This document shows, in pieces, positions 6,462 through 53,432 of a DNA stretch of 64,000 nucleotides. Every line of letters starts with the position of its first letter. Position 1 is the stretch's first letter. Source of the stretch: Nitrosopumilaceae archaeon. Lineage in GTDB: Archaea > Thermoproteota > Nitrososphaeria > Nitrososphaerales > Nitrosopumilaceae. Made by a program: the position numbers and the translations under genes. Under the pieces are notes generated by a model, which saw only the letters and a program-made list of their open reading frames with translations, was not told the origin of the DNA and did no database searches. Location of the stretch: positions 1-64,000 of the forward strand of contig CBDATR010000010.1 of assembly GCA_965200155.1 (NCBI GenBank). Direction: 5' to 3'.

Positions 6462-6636
6462 CTTGCGTCTACCAAGAAAGAACTTGCACATTACAAGGAG
6501 AATGAGCGAGAGATAAAACGTGGAGACATAATACTTGCGTCTACCGAGAAAGAACTTGCACATTACAAGGCAGGGGCCATGGGCCGCCTTGTCCTACGTC
6601 TTGCGGCTACCGAGAAAGATCTTGCACATTACAAGG
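6462..6636 (+). repeat. three 37-bp direct repeats with 35- and 29-bp unique spacers (CRISPR-like geometry)
   Basis: Repeats at 6462, 6534 and 6600; the sister IS66 copy has no spacers and no triplication. Confidence 0.9.
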
Positions 6637-7411
6637 AACGTGTGAGAGTATTGGAAGCATATATGTCACGCACCACAAAAGAAATACGAAATCTCACACA
6701 AGATTTCCAAATTATTAGGAATTATGTAAATGAATTGAATGAGAAATTAGAAGAAAAACAGGGGAAAATTGCGGTACTCATAACGTGACTTAAATATTAT
6801 GAGAATGCTCACTCGCCACCATCCCTTCAATCCCTCCAGTACAAGAAGCGGAAACAGGGAGAGATAATAAGAAACAGAAAGAAGCCAGTACTAAATCAGC
6901 CAAAAAGGCTGGCGCTCAAAAGGGACACAAGGGGGTTTCTCGTTCCCACAACCCCGACAGAGTAATGCGCCATACCTTTAAGCATACTCCACTATGTGAG
7001 TGCGGCAATATGATGACAAAAATTGGTTGGAAACAACGACACATAACGGAATTAATACCAGCCAAAATAGAGGAGGCCCACCATATGATAGAAATGGCTG
7101 CGTGTGGGTGCGGCAAAAAACAACTGGCCCCAGCAGCGGGCGTCCCAAAGAGTGGTGGTTTTGGAGTTCAATTATGCGGTGCCATCACTGCATTGCGTGC
7201 GGAAAAGATTCCAATAAAACGCATACCTGTAATTTCGAAGGATCTCTTCGGCCTAAATATATCGGTGGGTGCAGTAAACAACATAATTGCCAGGGCCGCC
7301 GATGCATGTGAATCATTTATGGAAACAATTCATGAGAATATAATAAAATCACCCAGCATTCATGTGGACGAAACTGGTATATCACTGGCGGGTAGGCGTG
7401 ACGGGATATGG

Positions 7412-7503
7412 GTATGAGTTCACCTGTGTCTAAATTTACGCATAACTGATCGCGACAGTTAATGTGATTTGTGCGTAAGATTCCGGAAGACGTGAACTCA
7501 TAC
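7412..7503 (-). mobile_element. 92-bp MITE family 1
   Basis: TIRs; TSD GGATATGG; inside the IS66 transposase gene. Confidence 0.95.
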
Positions 7504-8249
7504 GGATATGGGGGATGCGGGCCGAAGAGTGGATGATATACAAAAGTAGGAGTTCATATGTAGTGGACAAATACCTGAACGGTTACAATGGAGCGATAGT
7601 CACAGACAGGTACGCTGTGTATCGCCGGTTTGATGACGGTGGGAAGCACCAGTTGTGTTGGGCGCATTTATTGCGCGATACCAGTATATTACATGCGGGA
7701 TTCTATATTGATCCCGGTGATCAGGACGCCCGGATCAAACTTGACAACGATTTGAAAGAATTGTTCCGGAGCGCACGTGAATCGCTGTGGGCCGTCCGCG
7801 CAATTACGACACTCATTTGAGACGGGGGCAGATGCATCAGTATTGTGATGTTGATGATACTGAACTGCAAAAGAAGGTAAAAGGATTGAATAAGGTCATA
7901 CCAGGCATGTTCGTATTCTTAGAATATGACAGTGTGGCGCCGACCAACAATCCAGCGGAGCAGTGGAACCGGTTCTGATACGCAGTGGTATTCCGCAAGA
8001 TTAGTGGTCAGATAAAGGGTGGTGAAAGGGCCATGCGCCGCATGTCTACATTCGTATCATGTGTTCAGACATGGAGGGCTCAGGGCCTTTCTGTAATGAA
8101 CGAGGTTGCTGCCAGAATGCAATTATAATTAAAAAACTGGGATGCATTCTATCTTATTATGTGATCAAAACACGTGAACTCATACGATTGATCATCTAAT
8201 ATGTGATGAAACACATGCGTGTTCCTTCCGGTATTAAAAAATGAAAAAT

Positions 8250-10076
8250 CTAGTTACAAGAATTGCCTTCGATAGTTGTATAATCAATTACAACCAACAA
8301 GTTGGTCTTCTGCGCAAGTCCGGCGTTGATCTGAAGTGGTCCTTCGCCGCCAAACGTGAATGGCAACTCACCAATGTTTGGTGTCAATGTACCATTACTA
8401 GCGAAGCCGAATATAGCATATACCTTTTTATCATCACCATCTCCTGTGAATAATTCAAGTGTACTGTACTGTGGCAGTGTTACGCCGCCTGGTACTTCTG
8501 TCCTTATGTCATTGATAATGGTTGGTACATTATTACAGTTTAGTGTATCGGTGAACCTCTCGATCAACCCACCATCCCCATCGGTGTCTCTCATAGGGTT
8601 AAGTATTTTTGTGGCTGAGTTTGTCAAGTCTGCAAAGCTGCCTGCCTGCATAATCTCACAACTGGCTTCATTGGCCGATAGCCAACTAATGGTCATTGTA
8701 AATGATTCTATGTTACCTACGCCCGCCTTACTGACTGTGTAACTGGCATATGATGAAGCGGCAGGAGACACATATGGTAAATCATTAGGCCGCTCAGGCA
8801 GATCGCTATTCCTCATACCATATGATTTGAAATCAGGCAGCCTATGAGTGTGTATTTCCGTATCGCCTGGACCATCATTGTTGTTGTATCGGGGAGCTAT
8901 ATAGGTAAAGTCTTCTCCAAATGGTGTAGAAACGTACCCGTTAAGGGCAGTGACGAAATCGTGCTTGGCCGTGTGTGTTGTAGTGATATCCAGTGCATCA
9001 CCAGCTGCTAGAGCCATGCGACCCAAGGAATGGTCCTTACGATTAAGGGAAACTTGGTCCGCTTTTATCTCCGCAATATTGGATTTGTATATTGGTATGC
9101 CACCAACGTATAATGTCGCTTCTGTACCATCTACGCGATCAGGATCTCCTTCATCGTGGTATGGGAAAACGTGATCAATATTGTTCGACTCAATGTTTGT
9201 CGTTACAGTGTTCAGGAAGACATCCTCGTCACATACAAGCTCAAATGCAGCCTTATATGTGCTAAGTCCCTTGTCATCTTTTGGTGGAATTTTGCCTGAA
9301 GCCGCATCACCAAAGTTTCTCTGATATACGGTGTGCGTTATCTCGCCTGAGTATAGCATCGTTATTGGATCCGGTACAGCTGCCATTACAGCTTCTTCTG
9401 CCGCTTCCCTGTCCATGTCTGCATCCATTTGGATGTTATTCAGCATTGTTTCCAACTGGTTAAGCTTTGCAGCGTTATTGGTTATGCCTCTGACTATTCT
9501 ATCCAGTGTGGCAGCATTCTCGGCATTAGCATCGCTAACTGCGTCGCTAATGTCACTTGGACTAACTAGTGACTCACTAATGTCACTTAGAGTATCTGCC
9601 TGTCCTTCTATTTCTTCATGCAAATTCTCAATATCAGATGTGCTTACTACCTGACTACCAAAGGTGGCCAATGCGGTCATAAGTCCGTCTAGCTTGGAAT
9701 CCACTGCGCTCACGTCATTGGCTACGGCGCTAACATCAGCACCTAGTCCGTCAACACTGGCAGTAACATTGCTCACGTGGCCGGTCAGGTCATTAACATT
9801 ATCATTCACCGCTGATACATTATCATTCACCGCTGATACATTATCATCAACACCACTTATTGCATCGCTAATTGACATTAGCATTTCCATGACACTGTTG
9901 GTCATAGTGTCAATGGCACTACTTATTGCCATGAGCAAGTCGTTGTTATCCATGGTTGTTTCATCCACGGTTGCCAACCGTTCTGTGTTTGTCTGTGCAT
10001 ATGCGTCATTTATCGTTACAGCTCCTGACACCATTACAAAAGATAGTAAAAGTGCAGGAATCAATTTAGCTTTCAT
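8250..10076 (-). CDS. secreted acidic surface protein with coiled-coil stalk
   Basis: First 43 aa identical to 3158-4978, divergent afterwards, same Cys pattern and GNSC end. Confidence 0.8.
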   Translation of the reverse strand: MKAKLIPALLLSFVMVSGAVTINDAYAQTNTERLATVDETTMDNNDLLMAISSAIDTMTNSVMEMLMSISDAISGVDDNVSAVNDNVSAVNDNVNDLTGHVSNVTASVDGLGADVSAVANDVSAVDSKLDGLMTALATFGSQVVSTSDIENLHEEIEGQADTLSDISESLVSPSDISDAVSDANAENAATLDRIVRGITNNAAKLNQLETMLNNIQMDADMDREAAEEAVMAAVPDPITMLYSGEITHTVYQRNFGDAASGKIPPKDDKGLSTYKAAFELVCDEDVFLNTVTTNIESNNIDHVFPYHDEGDPDRVDGTEATLYVGGIPIYKSNIAEIKADQVSLNRKDHSLGRMALAAGDALDITTTHTAKHDFVTALNGYVSTPFGEDFTYIAPRYNNNDGPGDTEIHTHRLPDFKSYGMRNSDLPERPNDLPYVSPAASSYASYTVSKAGVGNIESFTMTISWLSANEASCEIMQAGSFADLTNSATKILNPMRDTDGDGGLIERFTDTLNCNNVPTIINDIRTEVPGGVTLPQYSTLELFTGDGDDKKVYAIFGFASNGTLTPNIGELPFTFGGEGPLQINAGLAQKTNLLVVIDYTTIEGNSCN

Positions 10077-10127
10077 TTTAACCTCCTAGTCGGCGTGATT
10101 TATATAAATATAATGGATCCGGGTTCT
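9947..10127 (-). repeat. 181-bp repeat, inverted copy of 3107-3287
   Basis: Direct comparison. Confidence 0.95.
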
Positions 10128-10173
10128 AACATCCCGTTAGACATTAATTTGCCAATCTGCACATGATAACCGT

Positions 10174-13008
10174 TTGTATACGGAATCCACCGACAAGCCT
10201 ATCGCCCCATCCAACTGGGGCCGGTACATAAAAGTCGCGCTAATCGCCGGACTGGGCGTCCTGATATTTCTCCTGGCGGGGAATCAAGCTGTTCTTATAT
10301 TCATGAATGTGGTAGAGTTTGAGGAGCAGTTCACAAAACCGCTCTACTATTCCCTGGTATCCGCGTTAATCCTCTCCTCCATATCCCTCATAAGGATAAA
10401 CCCCGTTCGCCGTTCCTCCATGTTCTGGTATGTCATTAATACGGCAATCTCTTCTATGAGCCGGGCTCCCGGCGAGGCTAGGGCAATCCAGCGGTTCTCC
10501 GACTTTAGACTTACGCCGGTGCAGTTTAGTCTTTGGCAAATAACCAAAGTCCTGCTCTTTGGCGCATTCTTCACCAATGTAATGTTCGGCTTTGCCGCCA
10601 TATCATTCCTGGACGGGAACACGCTGGGGGTGGATCATTTACCGGGACTCTTCTCATTGCCCTTTGTTACCCCGCCCACGGATCCGTCATACGCGGAGAA
10701 TACCGTAATCCCCATGATACCAGCTTTGGTAATACTACTCTCCCCCATACTCTCTGCCATCGGGCTGCGGTTACTACTCTACATTGGGATGCACGGCATA
10801 CTGAGTATGGTTACCAGCTATGTTGCCGACTCGTCCGAGGGCAAGGCAAGATACCTAAATTATGCATCAACATTAGAGCTTATCCTGGGCGCCACCATTC
10901 TCTGGACTGCCTTTAACCTCTTCTTTACGGATAACATTGATTACAACACACGGTACGTTGTGGCCGGAGCACTCCTGATAGGCGTGGCAATGTTATCATT
11001 CTCCGTAATAGACAGGATACGCGCCAGAGTATTAACGCACATGCTTCGGCGGGACGTCCTGATACGTATTGGAACGATAGTGGCAATTCTTCTCATCGTA
11101 TTGGTCATTACTACGGTGAATAACAGCGTGGCGGACGCCCGAAAGATAGAGTACATTGGTCCATACACGGCGCAGGAGATTGGCGTGAATCGTTACCTGG
11201 GTGAGCTGGACAAGATACAGGAGAACATACACGAGGTGAATATATCGCCGGTATCGCCGAATAATATTGATCGCTACGTCATCGAGAACCAGGACGTTTT
11301 AGATGTAGTGCGGGTCTGGGACTGGGAAGCCGCATTTGCCAAGCTAAGACCGGAGATTGGACTTATACCATACGTCAGCTTTGAGGATAACGATATACTG
11401 CGGTTCAATGATACCCTGTACTGGACCGCCTCCATGACGCCCATTGTTCCAAGTACAGTGGATCCCAGCAACATTTGGTTTAACCAGCACTTGGTGTATA
11501 CTCATGTACCCAATGGCTTTCTGACTTTAGGGGCAACTGACGGGCAGATTGTCGATAGCGCCGAGTTCTTTGATCAGCGTCGAATATACTATGGCGAGGG
11601 CGGATTGTTCAGCGATACATGGTCCGGCTTTCCCGCGGGTGACGTATCAAGGGAGATAGACGGGGTCACATATGCCGGTACCGGCGGAATTGATGTAAGC
11701 CCGCCCATAAGTTACATCTTTGAGCCCAACTTTCTATTATCGTACCCCACCGACTCGGTTCACGTGAACCGCTACAAGGATGTACATGAGCGTATGGGCG
11801 AGCTGTACCCATACTTCCTTTACTCGTTGTTCGGCAGCAAGATAGACCTGTTGCCGGTAACTGACGGACAGAACACTTACTGGATGGTCCCTCTCATCAT
11901 AGGCTTTGACACCAGGGATGTACCCTGGTCACAGGGGCATCCGTACCTGAGACTGGTGGGATACGCACTAATTGACATTTATGATGGCGATATATCGTTA
12001 CTCAAGACCGGTGATGACTTTTTCACTGAGATGTTCGTATCACAGTATCACGAAAAGTTTGAGCCCATGCCGGTATGGTTGGAGAACCAGATAAGATATC
12101 CTGTAGAGCTGTTCAACTGGAAGACAGAGATGTATAACAGCTATCACGTTACCAACGTGGAGACCTTCATACAAGCCAATCAGTTCTATGAGATACCCAG
12201 TGGATTAGACACGTATTACATACAGGCAAAGCCTCCGGGCTTTGAGAGTACGGAGTTTCTGGGATTGTTATCACTGGAGCTGCGGGGGTCCCAGGGTCGT
12301 AACCTGGCCGGTTACATGATTGTAGAGAACGATCTACCGAATCTGGGCAAGATGCAGTTCTATGAGGTACCCCTGAACTCCACTACAAAACTGATAGGGC
12401 CCACGGCGGTGAATGAGGCGCTGGACAGGGATCCCGAGTTTGCCCAGTTGAATACCTTATTGCGGAACCCACGGGTGGGTGATAACATACTGTATCGTGT
12501 GGGTGCGCAGGATGTCTACTTTATACCGGTATATACTGCTGGGGCCGGGGGAGTCGTGGCACAGCTGGGTACTGTGGCCGCGGTGGGTGCCTCATTCACG
12601 GGCGAGTATTATGTGGGGTTGGGGCAGACCCAGGAAGAGGCGTTTGAAGCATATCTGCAAAAGTTGTCGGGAGTGGAGCCGGCCGCGGTAAATGGCGGCG
12701 ATGTCCTGGAAATGACAAGGGACGATCGTGTCAATGCCGTTTATGAGGCATTGGAAGATGTGGAGATAGTGGAGCCAACAGCAATACAGTTCCCCCTGAC
12801 ATTCCAGGCGAATGAGGTATTCTTCTATACATCCGCGGATCTTGACGATGTTACTGACGCCATTGACTCGTTCATGGATGATTATGTTGTTCCAAGGACT
12901 GACCGCGTCTTTGTGTGGACAGAGGGTACTGCAATAAGTATAGGAACGGTTCTGGTGCGGGACGGCATATCGGAACTGCACTATATTGTTGTAGAGGTCG
13001 GAAGTTGA
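10174..13008 (+). CDS. UPF0182 family membrane protein
   Basis: Multi-TM N-terminus; VRVWD, HLVYTH, RIYYGE and RYP motifs. Confidence 0.9.
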   Translation: MYTESTDKPIAPSNWGRYIKVALIAGLGVLIFLLAGNQAVLIFMNVVEFEEQFTKPLYYSLVSALILSSISLIRINPVRRSSMFWYVINTAISSMSRAPGEARAIQRFSDFRLTPVQFSLWQITKVLLFGAFFTNVMFGFAAISFLDGNTLGVDHLPGLFSLPFVTPPTDPSYAENTVIPMIPALVILLSPILSAIGLRLLLYIGMHGILSMVTSYVADSSEGKARYLNYASTLELILGATILWTAFNLFFTDNIDYNTRYVVAGALLIGVAMLSFSVIDRIRARVLTHMLRRDVLIRIGTIVAILLIVLVITTVNNSVADARKIEYIGPYTAQEIGVNRYLGELDKIQENIHEVNISPVSPNNIDRYVIENQDVLDVVRVWDWEAAFAKLRPEIGLIPYVSFEDNDILRFNDTLYWTASMTPIVPSTVDPSNIWFNQHLVYTHVPNGFLTLGATDGQIVDSAEFFDQRRIYYGEGGLFSDTWSGFPAGDVSREIDGVTYAGTGGIDVSPPISYIFEPNFLLSYPTDSVHVNRYKDVHERMGELYPYFLYSLFGSKIDLLPVTDGQNTYWMVPLIIGFDTRDVPWSQGHPYLRLVGYALIDIYDGDISLLKTGDDFFTEMFVSQYHEKFEPMPVWLENQIRYPVELFNWKTEMYNSYHVTNVETFIQANQFYEIPSGLDTYYIQAKPPGFESTEFLGLLSLELRGSQGRNLAGYMIVENDLPNLGKMQFYEVPLNSTTKLIGPTAVNEALDRDPEFAQLNTLLRNPRVGDNILYRVGAQDVYFIPVYTAGAGGVVAQLGTVAAVGASFTGEYYVGLGQTQEEAFEAYLQKLSGVEPAAVNGGDVLEMTRDDRVNAVYEALEDVEIVEPTAIQFPLTFQANEVFFYTSADLDDVTDAIDSFMDDYVVPRTDRVFVWTEGTAISIGTVLVRDGISELHYIVVEVGS

Positions 13009-13562: not shown

Positions 13563-13568
13563 CTGTTT

Positions 13569-14881: not shown

Positions 14882-16568
14882 GTATGAGTTCACGTGTTTT
14901 GATCACATAATAAGATAGAATGCATCCCAGTTTTTTTAATTATAACTGCATTCTGACAGCAACCTCGTTCATAACAGAAAGGCCCTGAGCCCTCCATGTC
15001 TGAACACATGATACGAATGTGGACATGCGGCGCATTGCCCTTTCGCCACCCTTTATCTGGCCACTAATCTTGCGGAATACCACTGCGTATCGCAAAGCCT
15101 GCTCCGCTGGATTGTTGGTGGGCTCTACACTGTCATATTCTAAGAATACGAACATGCCTGGTATGGCCTTATTCAATCCTTTTACCTTCTTTTGTAGTTC
15201 AGTATCATCAACATCACAGTACTGATGCATCTGCTCCTGTCTCAAATGAGTGTCGTAATTGCGCGGACGGCCCGCAGTGATTCAGGGATTCCCGTGCGCT
15301 CCGGAACAATCCTTTCAGGTCGTTGTCAAGTTTGATCCGGGCGTCCTGAGCACCGGGATCAATATAGAATCCTGCATGTAATGCCTGGGTATCGCGCAAT
15401 AAATGCGCCCAACACAACTGGTGCTTCCCACCGTCATCAAACCGGCGGTACACAACGTACCTGTCCGTTACTATCGCTCCCTGGTAACCGTTCAGGTATT
15501 TGTTCACTACATTTGAACTCCTACTTTTGTCATATATGGACATCATCCACTCTTCGGCTCGCATCCCCCATACCCAGCCACGCCTACCCGCCAGTGATAT
15601 ACCAGTTTCGTCCACATGAATGCTGGGTGATTTTATTATATTCTCATGAATTGTTTCCATAAATGATTCACATGCATCGGCGGCCCTGGCAATTATGTTG
15701 TTTACTGCACCCACCGATATATTTAGGCCGAAGAGATCCCTCGAAATTACAGGTATGCGTTTTATTGGAATCTTTTCTGCGCGTAATGCGGTGATGGCAC
15801 CACATAATTGAACCCCAAAACTACCACTCTTTGGGACGCCCGCTGCTGGGGCCAGTTGTTTTTTGCCGCACCCACACGCAGCCATTTCTATCACATGAAG
15901 GGTCTCCTCTATTTTGGCTGGTATTAATTCCGTTATGTGTCGTTGTTTCCAACCAATTTTTGTCATCATATTGCCGCACTCACATATTGGTGTGTACTCA
16001 AAGGTGTGATGCACTACTCTGCCGGGGTTGTGGGAACGGGAAACCCCCTTGTGTCCCTTTTGCGCGCCAGCCTTTTTGGCTGATTTCGTACTGGCTTCTG
16101 TCTGTTGCTTATTATCTCCCTGTTTTCGCTTCTGTTCCTCCTGTTTTCGCTTCTTGTACTGGAGGGATTGAAGGGATGGTGGCGAGTGAGCATTCTCATA
16201 ATATTTAAGTCGCGTTGTGAGTACCGCAATTTTCCTGTCTTTTTCTACTAATTCCTCTTTTAATTCACTTACATAATTTCTAATAATTTGGAAATCTTGT
16301 ATATGATTTCGTATTTCTTTTATGGTGTGTGACATATATGCTTCCAATACTCTCACACGTTCCTTGTAATGTGCAAGATCTTTCTTGTAATCCTCAATAT
16401 CTTTCTTGATAGACGCAAGGGTATCCTGAAGAAGTTTATTTTCCAGTTCCAATTCCTTATAGGACCGGCGTCTTCTCATTAGATTCTTATTGCAAATTTG
16501 GTATTTAAGTAAAATATTGCCATACCAATCTATATCTTAGTGAATGATCAAAACACGTGAACTCATAC
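14882..16568 (-). mobile_element. IS66-family element, 1687 bp
   Basis: 24-bp TIRs, 8-bp TSD GGATCCTT. Confidence 0.97.
14940..16479 (-). pseudogene. tnpC: IS66 transposase TnpC split by one frameshift (ORFs 15214-16479 and 14940-15245)
   Basis: Coiled coil, GAQKGHKG, CxCG, DETG, QLCWAHLLR and PTNNPAEQALR motifs. Confidence 0.9.
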
Positions 16569-27214: not shown

Positions 27215-29523
27215 CCAATACAATATGTGAGAAGGCTTGGAATCCTGCCCTGGAGGGTGTTATAAGGAAGAAATGGGATGAGACCGGCGCCCACAAGACC
27301 CCGCAGGCGGACCGTTATTTCACCATAGATACCCCGCCGCCCTACCCTTCAGGCAAGCCCTGGCATATCGGGGCCGCGGCGCACTATGCCCAGATAGATA
27401 TGATTGCCCGCACTGCCCGAATGGACGGCCATGCCGTCTACTTTCCCATTGGTATAGACAGGAACGGATTACCGGTGGAGATATACGCAGAGAAAAAACA
27501 CAAGATACGCATGCGTGAAACTCCAAGGGAGGAATTCCTGGAACTTTGTAGGACGGCATTAGACGAGCTGGAGAATGAGATGATACAGATAATGAAACAC
27601 CTGGGAATGAGCGGTGATGTAGATGGCCGGTACAGGACAGATACGCCCGAGTATCGCTCCATGACCCAGGCTACCTTTATAGAATTGTGGAATAGTGGTC
27701 GAATATACCTAGCCACAAGACCCAACAACTATGACTGGGCTACCGGAACCACCATCGCGGATGCGGAGATAGCATATCTTGATTTACCGGCAAAACTGGT
27801 TTACATGAAATTTTCAATAGATGGTCATAACGACACTATCATTATAGCAAGTACCAGACCTGAGCTATTATGTACGTGCAAGGCCATAATGGTGAATCCT
27901 CAGGATGCCCGATATGAGACCCTGATAGGGAAGCGGGCCACCGTGCCCATATTTGGGCATACTGTTAAGATAGTGGGGCATCCCTCTGCCAAGACCGACT
28001 TTGGGTCAGGCGCAGTAATGATATGCAGTTATGGTGACCAGCACGATGTGGCCATATTTCGGGAGCTTGGTCTTGAGGAGACCGTGGCTCTGGGTATGGA
28101 TGGTCGTATGACTAGTGTGGCTGGCAAGTATGCTGGATTGCGCCCAAAGCAGGCACGCTCCAGCATAATACGGGACATGATGGAATCAGGTATCATAGAG
28201 CGTGTCGAGGAAATAATGCACCGCACCCCGGTATCTGAGCGCAGCAAGACTCCCATAGAGATAATTCCCATGGACGAGTACTATATGAAACAGAAGGACG
28301 TGCTGGATAGGTTGCGGGATTTGGGCTCTGGTATACGATTCCATCCACCCATGCACAAGCAGATACTGATGAACTGGCTGGATTCTGTATCCATTGATTG
28401 GCCTATATCCCGGCGCCGATACTATGGGACCGAGATACCCATGTGGTACTGTGATTCATGCGGTCATGAATATGTACCCCAGCCGGGTCCCTACTATGTG
28501 CCCTGGAAGGATGCCTGCCCCATTCAGGAGTGCGAGAAATGCGGCGGCGCCAAATTTACAGGGGAGAGTCGCACATTTGATACGTGGATGGACTCTAGCG
28601 TTTCACCATTATACATATCACAATATGGACGGGATGAAAAATTCTTTAAAAAGGCATATCCTGCTGCCATAAGACCTCAGTCTAAGGATATCGTAAGGAC
28701 ATGGCTATATTACACGCTATTGCGGTGCGACGCACTGACCTGCCAATCTCCCTGGCCCCGGGCATGGATTATGGGTTACGGACTGGACGAGCGGGGACTC
28801 AAGATGAGCAAGAGTAAGGGCAATGCCATAGATCCACTTCCCATAATACAGACTCATGGTGCTGATACATTCCGGCTATGGAGCGCCAGCGAGATCAATC
28901 ATGGTTATGACTTTAGGTGTAATGAACAAAAAATAGAGTCAACAAAAAAATTCCTAAGCAAACTCTGGAATATAGCCAGATTCCTGTCCTCATTCCCCGT
29001 GGTGCATGAGGCCACGCCCACAGTAACTGACAAGTGGATTTTATACGAGACCGACAGGCTGGTGGAAAAGTGCAGGGCGGGATATGATGAGTATAACTTT
29101 TTCATTCCAGCCATAGCCATACGGGAATTTACGTGGAACATATTTGCGGCTCACTACATCGAGATGGTCAAAAAGCGAGCCCGGGGCGAGGGATTCGACA
29201 AAGCGGAGAGCGAGGCAGCCATATACACGCTGCACAAGGTGCTGTCCACCATTCTGTTACTGCTGGCGCCAATTACACCCTTCATAACTGAGTATCTGTG
29301 GGGGCGTCTGTATGGCGATGCAAGCATTCATGAGCAGAAACATGCACAGGTTGCCGGCCATGATGTCATGGCCCTTGGTGATGAAATAATAAAATTTAAT
29401 TCTACAGTATGGGGATCAAAAAAGGAAAAGCACCTCTCACTAAAGGATGCCGTATCCATGGATGTACCTCCTGAACTACAAGGTATGACACAAGACCTGA
29501 CTGCCATGCACAATCTAGAATGA
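27211..29523 (+). CDS. valS: valine-tRNA ligase
   Basis: DTPPPYPSG, HIGA, WPISR, DTWMDS and KMSKS motifs. Confidence 0.97.
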   Translation: MTNTICEKAWNPALEGVIRKKWDETGAHKTPQADRYFTIDTPPPYPSGKPWHIGAAAHYAQIDMIARTARMDGHAVYFPIGIDRNGLPVEIYAEKKHKIRMRETPREEFLELCRTALDELENEMIQIMKHLGMSGDVDGRYRTDTPEYRSMTQATFIELWNSGRIYLATRPNNYDWATGTTIADAEIAYLDLPAKLVYMKFSIDGHNDTIIIASTRPELLCTCKAIMVNPQDARYETLIGKRATVPIFGHTVKIVGHPSAKTDFGSGAVMICSYGDQHDVAIFRELGLEETVALGMDGRMTSVAGKYAGLRPKQARSSIIRDMMESGIIERVEEIMHRTPVSERSKTPIEIIPMDEYYMKQKDVLDRLRDLGSGIRFHPPMHKQILMNWLDSVSIDWPISRRRYYGTEIPMWYCDSCGHEYVPQPGPYYVPWKDACPIQECEKCGGAKFTGESRTFDTWMDSSVSPLYISQYGRDEKFFKKAYPAAIRPQSKDIVRTWLYYTLLRCDALTCQSPWPRAWIMGYGLDERGLKMSKSKGNAIDPLPIIQTHGADTFRLWSASEINHGYDFRCNEQKIESTKKFLSKLWNIARFLSSFPVVHEATPTVTDKWILYETDRLVEKCRAGYDEYNFFIPAIAIREFTWNIFAAHYIEMVKKRARGEGFDKAESEAAIYTLHKVLSTILLLLAPITPFITEYLWGRLYGDASIHEQKHAQVAGHDVMALGDEIIKFNSTVWGSKKEKHLSLKDAVSMDVPPELQGMTQDLTAMHNLE

Positions 29524-30802: not shown

Positions 30803-31133
30803 CATTAATTTAGTGGATTTTCTGATGAGTAATATTCGAATTATAATAACACGGAAATTATGGACAGATATTTTTCAAAAATTTCTTGTACCTGGTATGC
30901 TTGTGCATAATGGGTAAATTATGCAACCCGGATACTACGAGTAGATCCCGGAATTCCTCATGACTACCATCATATACCTGACTTAATCTACGATATACCT
31001 TTAGCATTCGAATTACATTCTCGATTAATATGCGCCTTTTTGATACATATTGGTTGTATTTCCTTTCAGTGTTAGTGAGTGATTCCCTACCCCTGATGGA
31101 ATTATGACCTTTGCGCCGGGTAGGAAACTTTTC

Positions 31134-31225
31134 GTATGAGTTCACCTGTGTCTAAATTTACGCATAACTGATCGCGACAGTTAATGTGATTTGTGCATAA
31201 AATTCCGGAAGACGTGAACTCATAC
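31134..31225 (-). mobile_element. 92-bp MITE family 1
   Basis: TSD AACTTTTC. Confidence 0.95.
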
Positions 31226-31253
31226 AACTTTTCATCCCCTGGTATCCTGCATC

Positions 31254-31345
31254 GTATGAGTTCACCTGTGTCTAAATTTACGTATAACTGATCGCGACAG
31301 TTAATGTGATTTGTGCATAAAATTCCGGAAGACGTGAACTCATAC
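31254..31345 (-). mobile_element. 92-bp MITE family 1
   Basis: TSD CCTGCATC. Confidence 0.95.
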
Positions 31346-38823: not shown

Positions 38824-40256
38824 ATGATGGATGACATAATTCGGACCGTCGTTATACCGTTGAAAAATAATAGAGAGTTCTCCCGGCGCACCAAGATATT
38901 TGGTCACACGTCAGATTATGTCTATAATAGAGCGGTATCCGAGATCAGTCTTGGTGGCTACTACATACCCGGAACCACTCTTGAATTGAAGCATGATCCG
39001 GCCAAGGTCAAGAATAAGAACGAGTACGCCAAGTCACCATATGGCCTAAAGAAGGGCGCTTCATTATACGTGAATCAGATATCGCATTCTAGAACGGTCA
39101 TCAAGAGACGGTTTACCCGTCCAACAAGAATGGTTTGTTCCTGGAATTGACAAAGTGGCGCCCTGATCTGGAGTGGATGCGCGAGTTACCCTCTAACTAT
39201 GGTCGGGGTGCCATACTACAGGCGTCTGTCGCGTGCAGACGCGCGTACGAGGATCATTCTAATTACATGCCACACCGGCGTGACTGACAGAATCATACTA
39301 TCATGTGTAAGACCACCAATCCGTCGCGGTGAGTTCGAGTTGGACCTGTGCAGTTTTGGTGTGGGGAGAACAACCAAACCAATCGATCATTCCTTGGACA
39401 TGCGCTCATTCAGGATAGTGGAACGAGTAACCAAAGTAGGGGTGCATCTGGGATGGTATTGGGCAGTCCACTGACTCCATTCAGGATAGTGGAACGAGTA
39501 ACCAATAGTAGGGAGCATCAATTCGAGATTCACATCAATATACGGGAGAAACCATCGACCGGCGTTGTTCGCGGCGTGGATGTCGGCGGGAAACATCTAG
39601 CTGTAACAGCTGACACGAATGGCATAACGATGATTCCCAACATGAGACATCGTTCCATATTGCGGGAGATTAGCGCACTCCAGAGTATTAGAACGCGAAA
39701 GGGCAAGCGCAGGAAGCGAAAGATTGAGAAGAAAATCATTCAATTACGACAGAAAGCCAACAACATTGCGAACGACTCCATGAATAGAATGGTCCACACG
39801 GTCACCAAAGGTGTGGACAGGGTAGTACTAGAGGATTTATCACCTATATCAATGACCAGACATGGCGGGAACCACAAAATAACAATGAACCGTTCCATGC
39901 GCGAGAACCGGGTAGGCGAATTCCGCCGGAAAGTAGTACAAAAGTGCGAGGCACTGGGGATTGAATTGGTGGCTGTGCCAGCGAGATACACGAGGGGGCG
40001 GTTTACCCGCCCAACGAGCCAGACCTGTCACGTGTGTGGAAACGTTGAGATAAATCACGATCAACTAGGGACACTTTCAATATGTAACCAGGAATTTCAC
40101 GCCGATATCAACGCGGCGTTTAGTAACCGGTTTCTCTGTATGGGGCGGCAGAGCGTGTCGTCCGGGGGGCGGTTTACCCGCCCAACCGGAGGCGTCAGGG
40201 CAGGAATAATGGCGACAATCCAAAGCCATGTACTGCCTAGGAACGAGGTGCCATGA
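38824..40256 (+). pseudogene. tnpB: TnpB (IS200/IS605-type RNA-guided nuclease) pseudogene
   Basis: YVYNRA, GVDVG, VVLEDL, YT..SQTCHVCG and HADINAA motifs; several frameshifts and insertions. Confidence 0.9.
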
Positions 40257-40274: not shown

Positions 40275-41110
40275 TATGGCGACCACCATATCTAAGACAG
40301 AATCTATAATGGCACTATCCACAAACATTCCAGCGACAGAACATGTAGCAGCGATACAAATCATCTACAAATGTATAATCCAAGATTTTGATGCATTATC
40401 TATAATACTGTTCGGCTCTATGGCTCGTAGCGACCATGGCAAGTACAGTGACATCGATATCATGGTTGTGATGCCAGAAGGCACCAATACAAGCGTGGTA
40501 CATTATAGTATAGCGAACACCATAATTCTTTGGCATGCAAGACAGAGGCGCATGGCCGCAACAACAGTTGTGGCAGCCAGTATAGCGAACACCATAATTC
40601 TTTGGCATGCAAGACAGGGATTGTATGTGACATGTAGATTTGTTACCCAAGGACTCATGGTGACCGCTATATTCCTGCTGCCCGATGGATTTGGACATAG
40701 GTGTGGATACAATAGTGACAACACCGTTAATACTGGAGACAAAATCACATCTGCGCGGTTCCGTACAAAGAATGGCATACTGGGAGGTATAGAATTATAC
40801 GGTAATCACAAACTAAAATACGCCTTTGGGCATACTGATGACGCGAAGTCAGGATCCATATTGCTCGAAATTGCCCTTGATGATATTCAGTCAGCCATTG
40901 AAAATGACTCCGGCAAGACACCATACAAGAGTACGTGCGTACAATCCCCCCCAACAGGCGATAGAAAAGGCGCTCAAGTCTGTAAGGTCTGGTCCGGAAT
41001 AGAACCGAAACACATCAATTGAAATATCTCTATGCCAAGGTTCCGTCCGATTAGGGGATAAGCGCATCAGTAACAGATTCGGATGACATACCTAAACAGA
41101 ACATAGCTTC
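40275..41110 (+). pseudogene. minimal nucleotidyltransferase-HEPN fusion pseudogene
   Basis: LFGSMAR...SDID motif; frameshifted HEPN-like QQAIEK..K; MITE insertion; ends approximate. Confidence 0.7.
40509..40671. mobile_element. MITE family 3 (91 bp, TA-flanked) with a duplicated left end
   Basis: TIR TATAGCGAACACCAT / ATGGTGACCGCTATA; homologous to 35893-35983. Confidence 0.75.
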
Positions 41111-45179: not shown

Positions 45180-45220
45180 AAATTTAGATTTATATTAATA
45201 GAGATTTATATGTTTAATGA

Positions 45221-46257: not shown

Positions 46258-46285
46258 ATGAGAGGAATTACTGTATCCTTCTATC

Positions 46286-46600
46286 ATGGATGAAGCGGTA
46301 CGGGCAAAACTTGTTACAATCGGCAGGCGCAGTGGCATGAATCACACGGTAATGCTGCGGGCGGTAATGTATGGTGGGGACTTTTACTTTTCACGCCACC
46401 GTCCGGACTCGGACTGGTTCCTTAATGCTGTGTCCAACCCACAAGTACAAATCGCATATGAGGATATAATAATATCCGGTACTGCCTCCAGGGTGGATGA
46501 TGAGGATATAATGAGTATCGTATCCAATCTCAAGTATCCCGGAGAAGCCAGGGCGCATGAGAGACGCGTCATGATACGAGTCCGCCCTGTTACTACATGA
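46286..46600 (+). CDS. deazaflavin-dependent nitroreductase-like split-barrel protein
   Basis: T.GRRSG and DWFLN...NP.V motifs. Confidence 0.7.
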   Translation: MDEAVRAKLVTIGRRSGMNHTVMLRAVMYGGDFYFSRHRPDSDWFLNAVSNPQVQIAYEDIIISGTASRVDDEDIMSIVSNLKYPGEARAHERRVMIRVRPVTT

Positions 46601-47231: not shown

Positions 47232-47295
47232 GATTTACCTTGTTAAAAACGGCTCTGGTTGGAATGTACATCTGTCATGCAAGAATAAATAGACA

Positions 47296-48483: not shown

Positions 48484-49730
48484 CCACTTGTGCTGATGCA
48501 TTGTTCCGGGAGGTGGATCCCGTCATTGCAGAGATACTACAGCGGGCGCTGTCAGGCAGGGAGATAAGCGTGAAACAGGGCATGATTTTGTACGGTTCTC
48601 GGGGCATGGCTTTTCATTTAACGGGGATGGTGGCCGACCAGATTCGCCGTGACCGGGTGAGCGATGTCGTGACTTACGTGGTGAACAGGAACATTAACTT
48701 TACAAATGTCTGCATAAAGCAGTGCGGGTTCTGCGCCTTTAGCAGGGACTTTAGGGAAGAGGAGGGATACATGCTTCCGGTACAGGAGATAGTTCGCCGT
48801 GCACAGGAAGCCCGGCGGATGGGGGCAACGGAGGTCTGCATTCAGGCTGGACTGCCGCCGGATATGGAGCCGGACACATATGAGAGGATTTGTCGGGCAA
48901 TCAAGGAGTCGGTACCAAATATTCACATTCATGGGTTCTCTCCCGAAGAAGTGCTGTATGGTTCCCAGAGGGCTGGCGTAACCATACGGCAGTATATCTC
49001 GAGATTGCGGGATGCCGGGACAGACACCCTTCCGGGCACATCCGCAGAGATACTGGATCAAGGTTTGCGGGATACCATATCACCGGGCCGTATCACGGTA
49101 AGGCAGTGGGGGGAGGTGATACGAACCGCCCACTCTCTTGGTATGCGCACCACTGCTACCATGATGTTTGGTCACATGGAAAGTGTAGAGCAGCGTATAC
49201 GGCATATGGTAATGATACGAGATATTCAAAAAGATACCGGTGGATTTACCGAGTTTGTACCATTGAATTTTATCGCCCAGGAGGCGCCCATGTACAGGCA
49301 TAACCTGCATGACGGTATGAGTGCCGGTGCCGGGGGCACCGACATATTGCTGACCCATGCCATATCCCGTATAATGCTGAATAATATAACGAACATTCAG
49401 GTCTCCTGGGTCAAGGAGGGAATGCAAATGTCACAATTACTATTGAATTGGGGCGCCAACGACATGGGGGGCACTCTGATAAACGAGAGTATATCCACCT
49501 CTGCCGGTGCCACCCATGGTCAGCTGATACGGCCATCTCGAATGCGAGAAATCATACGGGAAGCCGGTCGCATACCCGCGGAACGAACAACCACTTATGG
49601 TATATTGAGGCGGTTTGACTCCAAGCCCGCTGTCAATGACCCCTTGGATGTTGCAGACTCCGCGGACTTTGGGTCGTATGCACAATTAATCAAGATAGAT
49701 AAGTTTCGGTACAGTAATCCCCGCGCCTAG
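48468..49730 (+). CDS. cofH: FO synthase subunit CofH
   Basis: NRNINFTNVC...CGFCAF, PGTSAEIL and GANDMGGT motifs. Confidence 0.95.
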   Translation: MVLALATCADALFREVDPVIAEILQRALSGREISVKQGMILYGSRGMAFHLTGMVADQIRRDRVSDVVTYVVNRNINFTNVCIKQCGFCAFSRDFREEEGYMLPVQEIVRRAQEARRMGATEVCIQAGLPPDMEPDTYERICRAIKESVPNIHIHGFSPEEVLYGSQRAGVTIRQYISRLRDAGTDTLPGTSAEILDQGLRDTISPGRITVRQWGEVIRTAHSLGMRTTATMMFGHMESVEQRIRHMVMIRDIQKDTGGFTEFVPLNFIAQEAPMYRHNLHDGMSAGAGGTDILLTHAISRIMLNNITNIQVSWVKEGMQMSQLLLNWGANDMGGTLINESISTSAGATHGQLIRPSRMREIIREAGRIPAERTTTYGILRRFDSKPAVNDPLDVADSADFGSYAQLIKIDKFRYSNPRA

Positions 49731-49743
49731 AGTCGCGCAAACC

Positions 49744-49921
49744 GTAACCGCTTGGGCCGCTCAAGATGTGTGCCAGCAAGTCGGGGACTAAATCCGGCCA
49801 TTCCACTAGCATAACAAGCATACGTTGGGGTCGCCGGTTACCATTCTGTACCGGTTTGCTTATGCTTACTGGTTTTTTGTCATGAAAACCCGCCTCGATT
49901 AGAAGCGACCTAAACGGTTAC
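49744..49921. mobile_element. MITE family 2
   Basis: TIRs; 9-bp flanking direct repeat GCGCAAACC. Confidence 0.85.
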
Positions 49922-49962
49922 GCGCAAACCTGTTAGCGGGAAATATGGGTCATAATCGTTTA

Positions 49963-50054
49963 GTATGAGTTCACGTCTTCTGTAATCTTATGTACAAATC
50001 ACATTAACTGTCGCGATCAGTTATGCGTAAATTTAGACACAGGTGAACTCATAC
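49963..50054 (+). mobile_element. 92-bp MITE family 1
   Basis: TSD ATCGTTTA. Confidence 0.95.
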
Positions 50055-50094
50055 ATCGTTTAAGCCGTCCCGGACTCAGTGACGCTTATTCCTG

Positions 50095-50186
50095 GTATGA
50101 GTTCACGTCTTCCGGAATCTTGTGCACAAATCACATTAACTGTCGCGATCAGTTGTGCGTAAATTTAGACACAGGTGAACTCATAC
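50095..50186 (+). mobile_element. 92-bp MITE family 1
   Basis: TSD TATTCCTG. Confidence 0.95.
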
Positions 50187-50287
50187 TATTCCTGCGGGGA
50201 CTCGTTCAATATATCGTCTATGCTTGCGGTGACCTAAACTTGAACGGTTACTATATCAGTCAAAATCAGGGTTCACCCGTGGTGGCA

Positions 50288-51706
50288 TTATTCATCTATA
50301 CTTGACACTGCAACCGGCGACGCGGGATCAGTAATGTCCATTATCTGGGCACCATCATCATAAGTGGCGGCTACCAACGCGTAAGTACTGTTACCCATGT
50401 TGAATGCCACAATACCATTGGCTCCCCATAATTCCGTAAAGCCGTCAGCATCATCAGTCACCGCGGCTATGTGGACCGGATTTGTGGGATCAGTAATGTC
50501 CATTATCTGCACGCCGTCATCTAGAAATGCGGTCACTATGGCATATGTCCTGCCATCTATGTCGGTCACCGCAATGTCGCCAGCTCCCCATAATTCCGTA
50601 AAGCCGTCAGCATCATCAGTCACCGCGGCTATGGGGACCGGATTTGTGGGATCAGTAATGTCCATTATCTGCACGCCGTTATCACTAAATGCTGCTACCA
50701 GTGCATATGTCCCGCCTGCTATCTCTGCTATTGTGATGTGATGAGCGCCATCCAGTTCCATAAAGCCGTCAGTGTCGTCGGTAACCCTGTTTGCTGGTAT
50801 GGGATATCTAGGATCCGTAATGTCAATTACTTGTATACTGTTGGAGTATTCCCCCGCTACCAGTGCATATGTCCTGCCATAAATCTCAGTCACCTCAATA
50901 TCACTAGCTCCCAATAATGCTGTAAAACCATTAACACCATTTGTAGCTGTGGCCATCCATACCGGATTTGTCGGGTTCGTGATATCCATTATCGGCATGT
51001 TATTACTATAAAACCCGGCTACAAGAGCGTACGTCCTGCCCCTCATCTCAGTCACCTCAATATCTCTTGTCCCATTCAGCTTCGTAAACCTGCCAACATC
51101 ATCTTTCACTGTAGCTGTAGGTACCGGGTTCGTCGGGTTCGTGATATCCATTATCTGCACGCCATTATCGTAAAACCCGGCTACAAGAGCGTACGTCCTG
51201 CCATATATCTCGGCTATCTCAATATCTCCAGCTCCCCACAATGATGCAAAGCCATCCACATCATCTTTCACTGTAGCTGTCGGTACCAGGTTAGTCGGGT
51301 CAGTGATATCCATTATCTGCACTCCGCTCCCATATTCTGTTGTTATCAAGGCATACGTCCTATTCGCTATCTCGAATACCGCCACATCACTAGCCCCCCA
51401 CAATGGTGTAAAACCACCCTCCACTGTACCTGTCGGGGCCGGGTATGCAGGATCCGTAATATCCATTATCTGCACTCCGCTATCCCCTGTTACCTCCGCA
51501 TATGCCCTTTTGTCTATATCGCTCACTTCAATACCGGACAAGTCACTCCACTCTCCCTGAACGCCGCCAATCACAAATCCCAGTGCCACTATAGACATCA
51601 CAACCTTGACTGTTATACTATCTGAGCCCACACTACAGTACTCATATTGATCTGTGATAAGTGTGGTGATACTCTTTTCAGTTGGGCGCTTATGACATTG
51701 AGCCAA
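50288..51706 (-). CDS. LVIVD-repeat beta-propeller surface protein
   Basis: About 8 repeats of TYALVA...GVQIMDITDPTNP; hydrophobic N-terminal segment; true start probably near 51600. Confidence 0.85.
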   Translation of the reverse strand: MAQCHKRPTEKSITTLITDQYEYCSVGSDSITVKVVMSIVALGFVIGGVQGEWSDLSGIEVSDIDKRAYAEVTGDSGVQIMDITDPAYPAPTGTVEGGFTPLWGASDVAVFEIANRTYALITTEYGSGVQIMDITDPTNLVPTATVKDDVDGFASLWGAGDIEIAEIYGRTYALVAGFYDNGVQIMDITNPTNPVPTATVKDDVGRFTKLNGTRDIEVTEMRGRTYALVAGFYSNNMPIMDITNPTNPVWMATATNGVNGFTALLGASDIEVTEIYGRTYALVAGEYSNSIQVIDITDPRYPIPANRVTDDTDGFMELDGAHHITIAEIAGGTYALVAAFSDNGVQIMDITDPTNPVPIAAVTDDADGFTELWGAGDIAVTDIDGRTYAIVTAFLDDGVQIMDITDPTNPVHIAAVTDDADGFTELWGANGIVAFNMGNSTYALVAATYDDGAQIMDITDPASPVAVSSIDE

Positions 51707-51751
51707 AACTGGCCAGATGAATCCGGGACAAGATCACTTGGGTCTAAATGT

Positions 51752-52678
51752 CTACACAAGCAGGGCGCTCAAAATATACGTCACGTATCCGGCCACCAGG
51801 GCCAAGCCCACGGGCCATCTTAGCTTTCCTGATCTGAATGCCGCAAACAGGACTAGGCTGAAGAGTATCATTATGGTATAATCTGTGAACGTCGCGGGTA
51901 CTACATGGATGCTGGCTATGGACGCGGAGACGCCTCCAATCAGGAGTATGTTGTATATGTTACTGCCTATGATATTCCCCACGCCAATGTCTGTGTGCCC
52001 CCGGCGTATGGCAATTATTGATGTTATGAGTTCCGGAAGGGACGTTCCTACCGCGATTACCGTTATCCCTATTATCCTCTGTGGTATGCCAACGGTCTCT
52101 GCAACCGCGACGGCGTTATCAACAGTAAGTATGGCTCCCGCATATAGTAATGCCACCCCGATGCCCATCAAGAGAAAGGAGCGCCCATATGAGGTCGTAT
52201 CTGCCGGGAGCGCCTCATCACTCTTGTGGGACTTTGACTGCCAGAATGTATAGACACTGAACACCCCGAGCATGGACAGAAGGATGACTCCGTCTATCTG
52301 GGATATTTGCCCGTCGGCAGATAATCCCACCAATAACGCGGAAAAGCCTACCATTATGGGCACCTCCAGCCGCAGGGTACGCCTGCCCACCACTAATGTA
52401 GTAAGGATGGTGGCTATGCCTATTACCATTCCAACGTTGGCTATATTGCTGCCCACTATGTTTCCCAGTATGATATCTCCATACTTTCCCGCGGCGGCCA
52501 CGCTGGCGGCCAGTTCCGGCGTCGACGTGCCATAGGCGACCACGGTCATGCCCACTACCATACTGGACATGCCAATACGACGGGCCACCGAGACGCCTCC
52601 CGAGACAAGCCAATTGCCGCCATAGCAAAGCATTATGATTCCTGCCGCGGTCAGGGCTAAGTTGATTAGAATATCCAT
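51752..52678 (-). CDS. Ca2+/Na+ antiporter (YrbG-like)
   Basis: Two alpha repeats GTS.PE / GNI.GSNI. Confidence 0.95.
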   Translation of the reverse strand: MDILINLALTAAGIIMLCYGGNWLVSGGVSVARRIGMSSMVVGMTVVAYGTSTPELAASVAAAGKYGDIILGNIVGSNIANVGMVIGIATILTTLVVGRRTLRLEVPIMVGFSALLVGLSADGQISQIDGVILLSMLGVFSVYTFWQSKSHKSDEALPADTTSYGRSFLLMGIGVALLYAGAILTVDNAVAVAETVGIPQRIIGITVIAVGTSLPELITSIIAIRRGHTDIGVGNIIGSNIYNILLIGGVSASIASIHVVPATFTDYTIMILFSLVLFAAFRSGKLRWPVGLALVAGYVTYILSALLV

Positions 52679-53252
52679 ATGATGGTTCTGCTATTACTGT
52701 CTTGTTTAAATCCGCCGTAGATGTGGCGTGCGACAAACTACCCTCTCATTCTTGCACCGCTATATCCTACTGCAAGCAGTCATGTGCCTTGTGATGTTTA
52801 TCCTGCCGCATGTGCCAAGTTCGTGATTGACACTCCTGTTTCCTCATTCAAAATCATTCTCATGAGTGTTGGATGGCACTCCTGAACCTCCGGTGGACGC
52901 GTGTAATGAGACATGGCCCCAAGGATTGAGCAAAAATCTATTCTGTGAATTACTCTTTGGATCCCGCGTCTATTAGCAGGTCCAGTATGTCCAACTCCAC
53001 CCTCAGGGATTCGTCTCCTATGGCTTACATTTCGGTAACAAAGTGTTCTGTGAATAGTGATATTGCCCCAAGGTCATCTCTTGACACACTAAGCGGTATG
53101 GACTCCCTCTCCCACTGGTCCGCTAGATTGCATTCCCGCTCGTATCCATTAATGCCAGTCTTGTAGAATGCCTCTATGGGCGACAGTGTGTTGTTCCCCT
53201 CACTGTATGCCCATGTCTGCATTATCTGGACGTACCTGCTCAGCAGTATGCC

Positions 53253-53432
53253 CTTTCTGGTACTATCATTATCATAGTATGGCCCCGAATGCTATGGTCT
53301 TTGGCATAGGTGACCAGTACCGTGCTTTCAGATACTGTCATTATCATAGTATGGCCCCGAATGCTATGGTCTTTGGCATAGGTGACCAGTACCGTGCTTT
53401 CAGATACTGTCATTATCATAGTATGGCTCCGA
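53253..53432. repeat. three 36-bp repeats with two identical 36-bp inserts
   Basis: Repeats at 53253, 53325 and 53397. Confidence 0.92.

Follow-up and report, generated by a model that had tools for sequence, protein, structure and literature searches.

Spacer-length insertions at non-CRISPR sites in a sponge-associated ammonia-oxidizing archaeon, probable off-target products of its type I-G adaptation module

Introduction

When Cas1-Cas2 is overproduced in Escherichia coli, integration also occurs off target and creates 'neo-CRISPR' loci (Nivala, Shipman and Church 2018, as related in the available portions of 10.1101/148544, PMC7054753 and PMC6698737). As described there, such a locus is a repeat-length duplication around a spacer-length insert at a non-CRISPR chromosomal site, and it may grow into a small array. 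We find the same arrangement at four loci in a 64,000-nucleotide stretch of DNA from a Nitrosopumilaceae archaeon (the window; positions 1 to 64,000 of contig CBDATR010000010.1, hereafter C10, of assembly GCA_965200155.1, hereafter G000), and at many other places in the same genome. Judged from their sequences, these 'stray' units are very probably off-target (ectopic) products of the type I-G Cas4/1-Cas2 proteins encoded beside the native CRISPR array of this genome.

The E. coli events come, in the same portions of those sources, from a type I-E laboratory strain under artificial overexpression with transformed oligonucleotides, and they are rare, whereas the present case is a natural type I-G archaeon with at least 63 fixed events in 2.4 Mb, 32 of the 63 being derived from the genome itself. 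Evidence for off-target integration in natural genomes is called 'circumstantial' in the accessible text of 10.1101/148544, and is limited there to two other species. Cas1-Cas2 of Pyrococcus furiosus acting in vitro is similar to the present system in that its paired nicks lie one repeat length apart and its off-target sites share bases at conserved positions with the borders and middle of the repeat (PMC6698737, in the sections available). Those sections concern plasmid DNA, a 30-bp ruler and G/C borders, whereas here we find a 36-bp ruler in vivo and a half-site of A at position -3, T at +3, G or T at +4, A or C at +5 and G at +10/+11.

Also comparable are the type I-G systems of Geobacter sulfurreducens (PMC6547450) and Methanosarcina barkeri (PMC10504553), in which Cas4 and Cas1 are likewise fused, spacers measure about 36 bp and the protospacer-adjacent motif (PAM) is TTN. 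As far as the available text of these two papers extends, they treat integration at the cognate leader-repeat junction, with approximately 70% of spacers taken from plasmid and 50-80% accompanied by TTN, and they report that spacer-side integration in vitro is less exact than leader-side integration. In the same portion of PMC6547450, the PAM of the G. sulfurreducens type I-U/I-G system is given as TTN and is found on 50% of unique new spacers. In the archaeon examined here, the targets are chromosomal, and TTN lies beside 9 of the 30 self sources.

Ectopic acquisition in Streptococcus thermophilus and S. mutans also places spacers away from the leader-proximal repeat, although these events, in the excerpts of PMC7999890 and PMC8265633 available, fall within a genuine CRISPR array and use true repeats. 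Finally, isolated mini-arrays away from cas genes have been proposed to stem from off-target acquisition (Shmakov et al. 2020, as cited in the accessible part of PMC13142298). Our interpretation resembles that proposal in explaining arrays distant from cas genes by off-target acquisition, and the proposal may already cover the event density and self-spacer contrast described below. The mechanism itself, off-target Cas1-Cas2 activity, is known; its natural scale we did not find described in the literature searched. Specifically, that literature yielded no natural genome with such a density of events, no contrast in self spacers between stray and native sites, no in vivo half-site for a type I-G integrase, no clustering of events beside a cas locus and no recurrence in relatives.

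Results

Four repeat-spacer-repeat loci in the window

The four loci singled out by the initial annotation are all confirmed as repeat-spacer-repeat units, with the coordinates and periods it had given:

6462 to 6636, plus strand: stray mini-array within an IS66-family transposase gene, in the part that encodes the N-terminal coiled coil (Pfam); repeat 6462-6498, spacer S1 6499-6533 (35 nt), repeat 6534-6570, spacer S2 6571-6599 (29 nt), repeat 6600-6636.
39407 to 39513, no strand assigned: stray unit within a tnpB gene (IS605 OrfB / Cas12f-like TNB; Pfam); repeat 39407-39441 (35 nt), spacer 39442-39477 (36 nt), repeat 39478-39513 (36 nt).
40510 to 40617, no strand assigned: stray unit in a disrupted nucleotidyltransferase gene (NTP_transf_2, Pfam), the locus listed at 40507 in the initial annotation; repeat 40510-40545, spacer 40546-40581 (36 nt), repeat 40582-40617; period 72, in frame.
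53253 to 53432, no strand assigned: stray unit whose repeat-spacer pair was then duplicated (a 72-nt unit, 2.5 copies); repeat 53253-53288, spacer 53289-53324, repeat 53325-53360, spacer 53361-53396, repeat 53397-53432.

In the first locus, 37-nt copies starting at 6462, 6534 and 6600 (periods of 72 and 66) enclose two unrelated inserts, and the IS66 DDE and zinc-finger domains (Pfam) follow directly downstream. Its 29-nt spacer S2 is a shortened version of a 35-nt spacer present in other IS66 copies. In the tnpB unit, the first copy is one base shorter than the second, and the resulting period of 71 shifts the reading frame, such that the window copy of tnpB is frameshifted. No source sequence for the spacer of this unit was found in the assembly.

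The remaining two loci have inserts with recognizable sources. The duplicates of the nucleotidyltransferase unit appear at first as two identical 39-nt copies; the spacer matches its source at C9:28695-28727 perfectly, and because the protospacer match extends 3 nt further, the true layout is a 36-nt duplication around a 36-nt insert. The unit at 53253 lies downstream of the present end of an open reading frame with a vWA domain (53864-54850, minus strand; Pfam). Its two inserts are identical, which indicates that one repeat-spacer unit was duplicated, and they match C9:145172-145203 at 31 of 32 bases, a distant sequence that marks the insert as foreign to its own flanks. The neighboring native spacers N160 and N161 (C9:82664-82771) are also identical, reflecting duplication of a repeat-spacer unit within the native array by the same process as at 53253.

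Stray units form a sharp period class across the genome

G000 is a metagenome bin of 2.38 Mb in 51 contigs and is 87.6% complete. It encodes an archaeal AmoA, as befits an ammonia-oxidizing archaeon from sponge metagenomes, and assemblies from sponge-metagenome runs of two studies contain the locus. All contigs were scanned for direct repeats 30-200 bp apart by ungapped extension of 12-nt exact seeds, a procedure that misses older or indel-bearing units and makes all counts minimum figures. Outside the native array, pairs with duplicates of 34-40 nt number 11 at periods of 30-69, 68 at periods of 70-76, 14 at 77-116 and 19 at 117-200. With 68 pairs at 70-76 and few at other periods, the excess is far beyond chance. 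A genome-wide peak near 72 bp had been predicted by the initial annotation, and the peak observed is sharp, at 71-75 bp.

Events were defined by a duplicate length of 34-40 and a period of 70-78, followed by clustering. This reduces 69 isolated pairs to 63 different inserts at 50 different sites; the window units at 39407 and 53253 fall outside the 63, owing to the limits of filter and scan. The units have 36-37 bp duplicated around an insert of 34-39 bp at periods of 71-75, and other periods hold zero or one pair each. The commonest duplicate lengths are 36 nt, in 22 pairs, and 37 nt, in 32 pairs; the latter are compatible with a 36-nt ruler, since a match that runs on by one or two bases is to be expected by chance. 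The flanking copies are identical in 49 of the 63 units. A pair of stray units at C24:352098-352298 is offset by 21 bp, with the second duplicated segment starting with the last 16 nt of the first; these overlapping duplicates indicate two independent integrations into overlapping targets. A MITE (miniature inverted-repeat transposable element) or an insertion sequence with a target-site duplication was considered as the inserting agent and does not fit the 63 different inserts, as no single element sequence is present at every insertion.

Repeated DNA (a second copy of at least 85% identity over at least 80 bp) makes up 27.7% of the assembly, an unusually high repeat content for a 2.4-Mb archaeal genome. 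In a metagenome bin of this kind, the units could be suspected to be assembly artifacts, ordinary slippage duplications or protein-coding tandem repeats, and Logan contigs do break at most units. Specifically, most of these contigs end at the duplicated segments, so that filled and empty alleles are not distinguishable from them, and stretches that no contig covers play no part in the argument. Nevertheless, Logan contigs from runs X1, X3 and X5, which belong to two studies, pass uninterrupted through the unit at L002:13224-13331. Moreover, the inserts bear no relation to the DNA around them and half of them match other places exactly, the periods form a narrow spike rather than a continuum, and the same pattern recurs in two single-contig genomes (G071 and G006, introduced below) while being absent from three control samples. 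An origin as artifact, slippage or coding repeat is therefore hardly credible.

A single type I-G adaptation module matches the geometry of the units

The initial annotation had postulated a Cas1-type integrase encoded elsewhere in the genome, and there is one Cas1 match only in the assembly. It belongs to an adaptation module at C9:68770-70844, in which a Cas4g/Cas1g fusion of 549 amino acids (NF049935, 710.7 bits) is followed by Cas2, both lying before the array. After the array, on the opposite strand, are genes for a Cas3 extension protein, Cas3g, Csb2 and Csb1/Cas7g. The type I-G set present thus comprises the Cas4/Cas1 fusion, Cas2, Cas3g, Csb2 (a Cas5-Cas6 fusion) and Csb1/Cas7g, with NCBIfam matches NF049935, TIGR01573, TIGR02621 (709 bits), TIGR02165 and TIGR02570. 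The closest Cas4/1 relatives in a species-representative collection, from which the window's own genome was excluded, are 51% identical.

The sole native array (C9:71011-92086) has 289 repeats (ATTTCC...CATTGAAGG), without variation over exactly 36 columns. Its 288 spacers are mostly 35-39 nt long, with 101 of 37 nt, 85 of 36 nt, 63 of 38 nt, 16 of 35 nt and 15 of 39 nt. Comparison with this geometry had been suggested at the outset, and both ruler and insert size prove to be identical in stray units and native array.

Two stray spacers sit exactly between the stop codon of cas4/cas1 and the start of cas2 (C9:70400-70587; L002:18400-18587). The duplicated segment of 37-40 nt at this junction keeps the 3' end of cas1 in copy 1 and the start of cas2 in copy 3, and the cas1-cas2 distance is now approximately 150 bp because of the two units.

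Cas8g/Csx17 (TIGR04113) was not found in G000 (87.6% complete), nor in G008 or G035, and is present at 462-505 bits in three I-G-bearing relatives (G071, G037 and G061). Upstream of csb1, in the expected place of cas8g/csx17, there is an IS5-type transposase (HTH_Tnp_4 and an IS5 fragment; C9:98717-100325, L003:6717-8325).

Stray targets share a weak symmetric motif with the native repeat ends

Sixteen unique sites with unambiguous 36-nt boundaries were used to examine target choice, each end being treated as a half-site without regard to orientation (32 half-sites). Counting inward from each cut, the bases that stand out among the 32 are A at -3 (16), G at +1 (15), T at +3 (16), G at +4 (16), A or C at +5 (28), G at +10 (16), G at +11 (17) and C at +12 (15). 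The resulting symmetric half-site is A(-3), T(+3), G/T(+4), A/C(+5), G(+10/+11), and its information content is low. On the other strand it appears as a [G/T][C/A]A end. The GAAAG-like end to which the initial annotation drew attention is thus partly borne out, being this symmetric half-site viewed from one side.

A model built from the 16 sites scores 32 held-out sites above random genomic positions (Mann-Whitney p = 3.7e-9) and puts the native repeats, which were outside the training set, at the 97th percentile of random sites. The native termini, ATTTC...GAAGG, are themselves symmetric, with T-T-C at positions 3-5 inward from each end. Stray sites and native repeat ends share a weak motif of two-fold symmetry. 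An oriented motif model fitted by expectation maximization (EM) over strand and offset reached a log-likelihood of 209.9, versus 130.7 +/- 9.6 in 20 random sets, and was dropped: the orientation it assigned is not in accord with the PAM side (of 9 cases, 5 agree and 4 disagree).

Events are also concentrated near the cas locus: the 11 kb upstream of the array hold five, versus 0.29 expected (P = 1.4e-5), among them the two at the cas1-cas2 junction.

The phenomenon recurs in relatives and follows their rulers

The same scan was applied to 400-kb samples of related genomes:

G071, same family, other genus, 70% G+C: type I-G, arrays of more than 500 repeats, period mode 71; 17 candidate units.
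G006, same genus: type I-G, 64 and 14 repeats; 3 stray units.
G005, same genus: type I-G, 128 repeats; 0 stray units.
G035, same family: type I-G, 37 repeats; 0 stray units, with 10.6 expected at the density of G000.
G003, same genus: Cas1 not found; 0 stray units.

The periods in G071 are 70 in eight units, 71 in three, 72 in four, and 69 and 74 in one each; one further row was excluded as part of a longer tandem repeat. Seven of the 17 units lie no more than about 12 kb from the array or from cas genes. Of three stray spacers tested, one recurs at other places in G071. The period modes of native array and stray units are 71 and 70 in G071, and 73 and 72 in G000. Both G071 and G006 are single-contig genomes. 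Stray units are therefore present in three genomes or more, from two genera, and follow the ruler of each. The type I-G systems of G005 and G035, whose samples are without stray units, indicate that the module alone is not sufficient. Empty versions of particular sites could not be read from relatives, as the regions around C10:229607 and C10:288031 do not align and genomes of the same genus have only about 70% DNA identity.

These comparisons bear on whether another enzyme made the units, such as a second Cas1, a casposase or a transposase with a staggered cut of about 36 bp, whose gene would lie in the 12% of the genome that is unassembled or on an element since lost. The 87.6% completeness of the assembly leaves room for such a gene, and the I-G modules of G005 and G035 are unaccompanied by stray units in their samples. 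However, the lengths of duplication and insert agree, genome by genome, with those of the native array, the ends of the native repeat conform to the target motif, events cluster beside the cas locus in both G000 and G071, and only a single Cas1 match exists. We regard another enzyme as very unlikely, and the type I-G Cas4/1-Cas2 of the genome as by far the better candidate.

About half of the stray spacers are copied from the genome itself

For 32 of the 63 stray spacers, a near-full-length source exists elsewhere in the assembly, outside the stray units and the array. These matches are 35-42 nt long and most are 100% identical. One such source lies in the window:

28035 to 28070, no strand assigned: protospacer (donor), the perfect 36-nt source of the stray spacer at C43:23951-23986.

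Inserts that were degenerate copies of the surrounding DNA would have spoken against spacer integration; these are not of that kind, and 32 of the 63 are copied from distant places in the genome. Among the 288 native spacers, by comparison, none has a chromosomal source. The only cross-match between native and stray spacers is that of N58, which overlaps E48 by 26 nt with an 11-nt offset; this fits two captures from one shared foreign element.

Only five of the 32 self sources are in repeated DNA. Sixteen of the 26 single-copy self sources are on C10 (28035-478599), although this contig makes up 22.7% of the assembly (p = 2.4e-5). The sites of integration, unlike donors, are spread roughly in proportion to contig size. 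The donor bias toward C10 could be related to replication, to copy number or to something else.

In 9 of 30 cases, versus approximately 4 expected, one side of the source is directly flanked by TTN. PAM selection at stray sites looks relaxed. Three overlaps among native spacers, examined for a native PAM, gave inconsistent flanks.

Many short contigs of 1.6-11 kb (C2-C4, C6, C8, C11, C14-C18, C21, C26-C29, C32-C33, C38-C42, C44-C45 and C47-C49) have a G+C content of 35-42%, versus 45-51% in large contigs. They may be mobile elements or mis-binned DNA. The native spacers have no match in them.

Uninterrupted sites reveal the direction of insertion

Empty sites were reconstructed as a 40-nt flank, one duplicate copy and a second 40-nt flank, and sought across the genome. 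Uninterrupted paralogous sites, at up to 100% identity, exist for 24 of the 63 events. The IS66 site struck at 6462 is represented by 66 loci with common flanks, of which 53 have a single 37-nt copy and are empty, and 13 have between two and four. The 13 expanded loci hold six different spacers. Unexpanded homologs in the window had been reported for two loci; for IS66, one single-copy variant is present:

16383 to 16419 (approximate), minus strand: unexpanded, single-copy divergent IS66 target variant with 7 mismatches to the copy at 6462.

The tnpB site of the window also has uninterrupted paralogs, for example at C10:368858-368906 and C24:271554-271598. The same site at C5:96434 holds a different spacer, and that event has 15 empty paralogs. 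Four further multicopy sequences have each been struck at least twice with different spacers. Hot spots thus lie in multicopy sequences of the IS66, tnpB and MITE-like kinds, which have received different spacers on repeated occasions. Spacer-bearing copies are present at several places in the genome, and identical inserts recur only within copies of the same insertion sequence. In IS66 arrays that share S2, this spacer is always on the right and different, newer spacers are on the left, an order that resembles addition at the leader end, with only two lineages being informative.

Families of insertion sequences and MITEs reach tens of copies in this genome, as with the 66 IS66-like loci and a MITE-like target present in up to 77 copies. 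In the window, two 94-nt copies 120 bp apart with 99% identity (31132-31345) resemble the inverted-repeat end at 6330-6440 beside the IS66 copy, and may be tandem ends of insertion sequences or MITEs. The arrays of a 162-bp unit that Tandem Repeats Finder detects at 50421-51416 (1.8-2.9 copies, 74-91% matches) look like a protein-coding repeat unrelated to the spacer units.

Consequences for genes and folding of the stray repeats

Periods divisible by three are found in 33 of 63 stray units versus 103 of 288 native ones (Fisher p = 0.016), an excess as expected if selection purges frameshifting insertions in genes. Removal of the unit restores open frames of 407, 495, 523 and 326 amino acids in four cases. 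According to Pfam, a DHO_dh domain (C10:311421) and an SHMT domain (C10:288031) both start just downstream of the unit, which places the two insertions at or before the 5' ends of intact-looking genes. A third restored frame (C10:141058) gave no Pfam family match, and in the 495-amino-acid case the insertion is about 16 codons from the C-terminal end. With two insertions upstream, one near a C-terminus and one without a family, knock-outs of housekeeping genes are not claimed. The mutator role once suggested for the integrase survives as a side effect, exemplified by the frameshifted tnpB of the window, even though two of the three frames tested represent insertions upstream of intact-looking genes.

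The native repeat folds with a predicted energy of -14.3 kcal/mol, whereas the stray duplicates average -6.1 and random 36-mers -5.8. None of 50 stray duplicates is predicted to be as stable as the native hairpin. As far as folding predictions indicate, stray units would lack the native type of repeat hairpin that a processing nuclease could recognize.

Discussion

A model for the formation and survival of stray spacers

The normal target of Cas4/1-Cas2 is the leader-proximal 36-nt repeat of the native array on C9. We propose that the same Cas1-Cas2 machinery makes its two staggered nicks, approximately 36 bp apart, at other sites, where a processed prespacer would be ligated and gap repair would duplicate the target. 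Later transposition of elements struck in this way would spread the spacer-bearing copies. Self-derived spacers could survive at stray sites, where the duplicates have no repeat hairpin and hence would not be processed into guide RNAs. Placed in the real array, the same self spacers would cause autoimmunity and disappear. Thus, we infer that self capture is common, lethal if expressed from a real array and harmless at stray sites.

Several points weigh against this interpretation. The attribution to this particular Cas1 is drawn from sequence comparison, and an assembly that is 87.6% complete could hide a second integrase. Related I-G modules in G005 and G035 come with no stray units in the samples scanned. 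PAM use is weak, at 9 of 30 sources, and among the nine TTN cases the PAM side agrees with the EM-inferred orientation of the site in five and disagrees in four. Furthermore, interference may be defective in this genome, which would fit poorly with a native array entirely devoid of self spacers. If interference is dead, as the missing Cas8g/Csx17 match might suggest, then the absence of self spacers from the array needs another cause, such as recent loss, an unassembled gene or different prespacer pools.

Are the insertions a selected function?

One alternative is that the insertions are a selected function, in which Cas1 insertion inactivates transposons or creates new mini-arrays that produce guides or act in regulation. 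Targets are mildly enriched in repeated DNA (27 of 63, versus 27.7% of the genome; p = 0.011), IS66 and tnpB sites have been struck repeatedly, and multi-spacer mini-arrays exist whose spacer order suggests addition at one end. However, the repeat enrichment is equally explained by tolerance of insertions in dispensable DNA, and the spacer-order argument comes from two lineages only. With only five of 32 self sources in repeated DNA, the spacers do not target transposons, and for the same reason, together with the mildness of the target enrichment, the anti-mobile-element system envisaged in the initial annotation is not borne out. The duplicates also fold like random 36-mers (-6.1 versus -5.8), and 0 of 50 match the -14.3 kcal/mol of the native repeat. 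We judge a selected function to be unlikely, and favor off-target integration by the native Cas4/1-Cas2 proteins, which upholds the central idea of the initial annotation.

The related proposal that new arrays are being seeded holds to the extent that small arrays of two or three spacers exist; their repeats, on the other hand, fold no better than random 36-mers, and nothing suggests that the small stray arrays function. A more ambitious possibility is that hyperactive I-G adaptation in sponge-associated ammonia-oxidizing archaea is a real evolutionary force, which leaves a spacer per approximately 40 kb, marks IS66 and tnpB and lets mini-arrays grow in transposase genes, with some units being expressed and used, either for silencing transposons or as embryonic CRISPR loci. 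This is a long shot. If true, the stray spacers would be the first natural, selection-free record of what CRISPR adaptation captures, at least half of it self and with a strong donor bias toward one region.

Implications

Off-target integration has so far been known mainly from the laboratory and from in vitro reactions, with thin evidence from natural genomes, whereas at least 60 independent events are preserved here, with further examples in at least two related genomes. The stray spacers are probably not expressed as guides and so would provide a sample of what Cas4/1-Cas2 captures: at least 51% is self, versus 0% in the array. This self fraction puts a figure on an autoimmune cost that is normally hidden by interference-based selection. 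The same units would also give the in vivo target needs of a type I-G integrase, namely a 36-bp ruler and a weak symmetric half-site. More broadly, CRISPR adaptation can be a measurable source of insertions of 72-75 bp, of which those in frame are preferentially kept, and the multi-spacer proto-arrays offer living examples relevant to the origin of CRISPR arrays.

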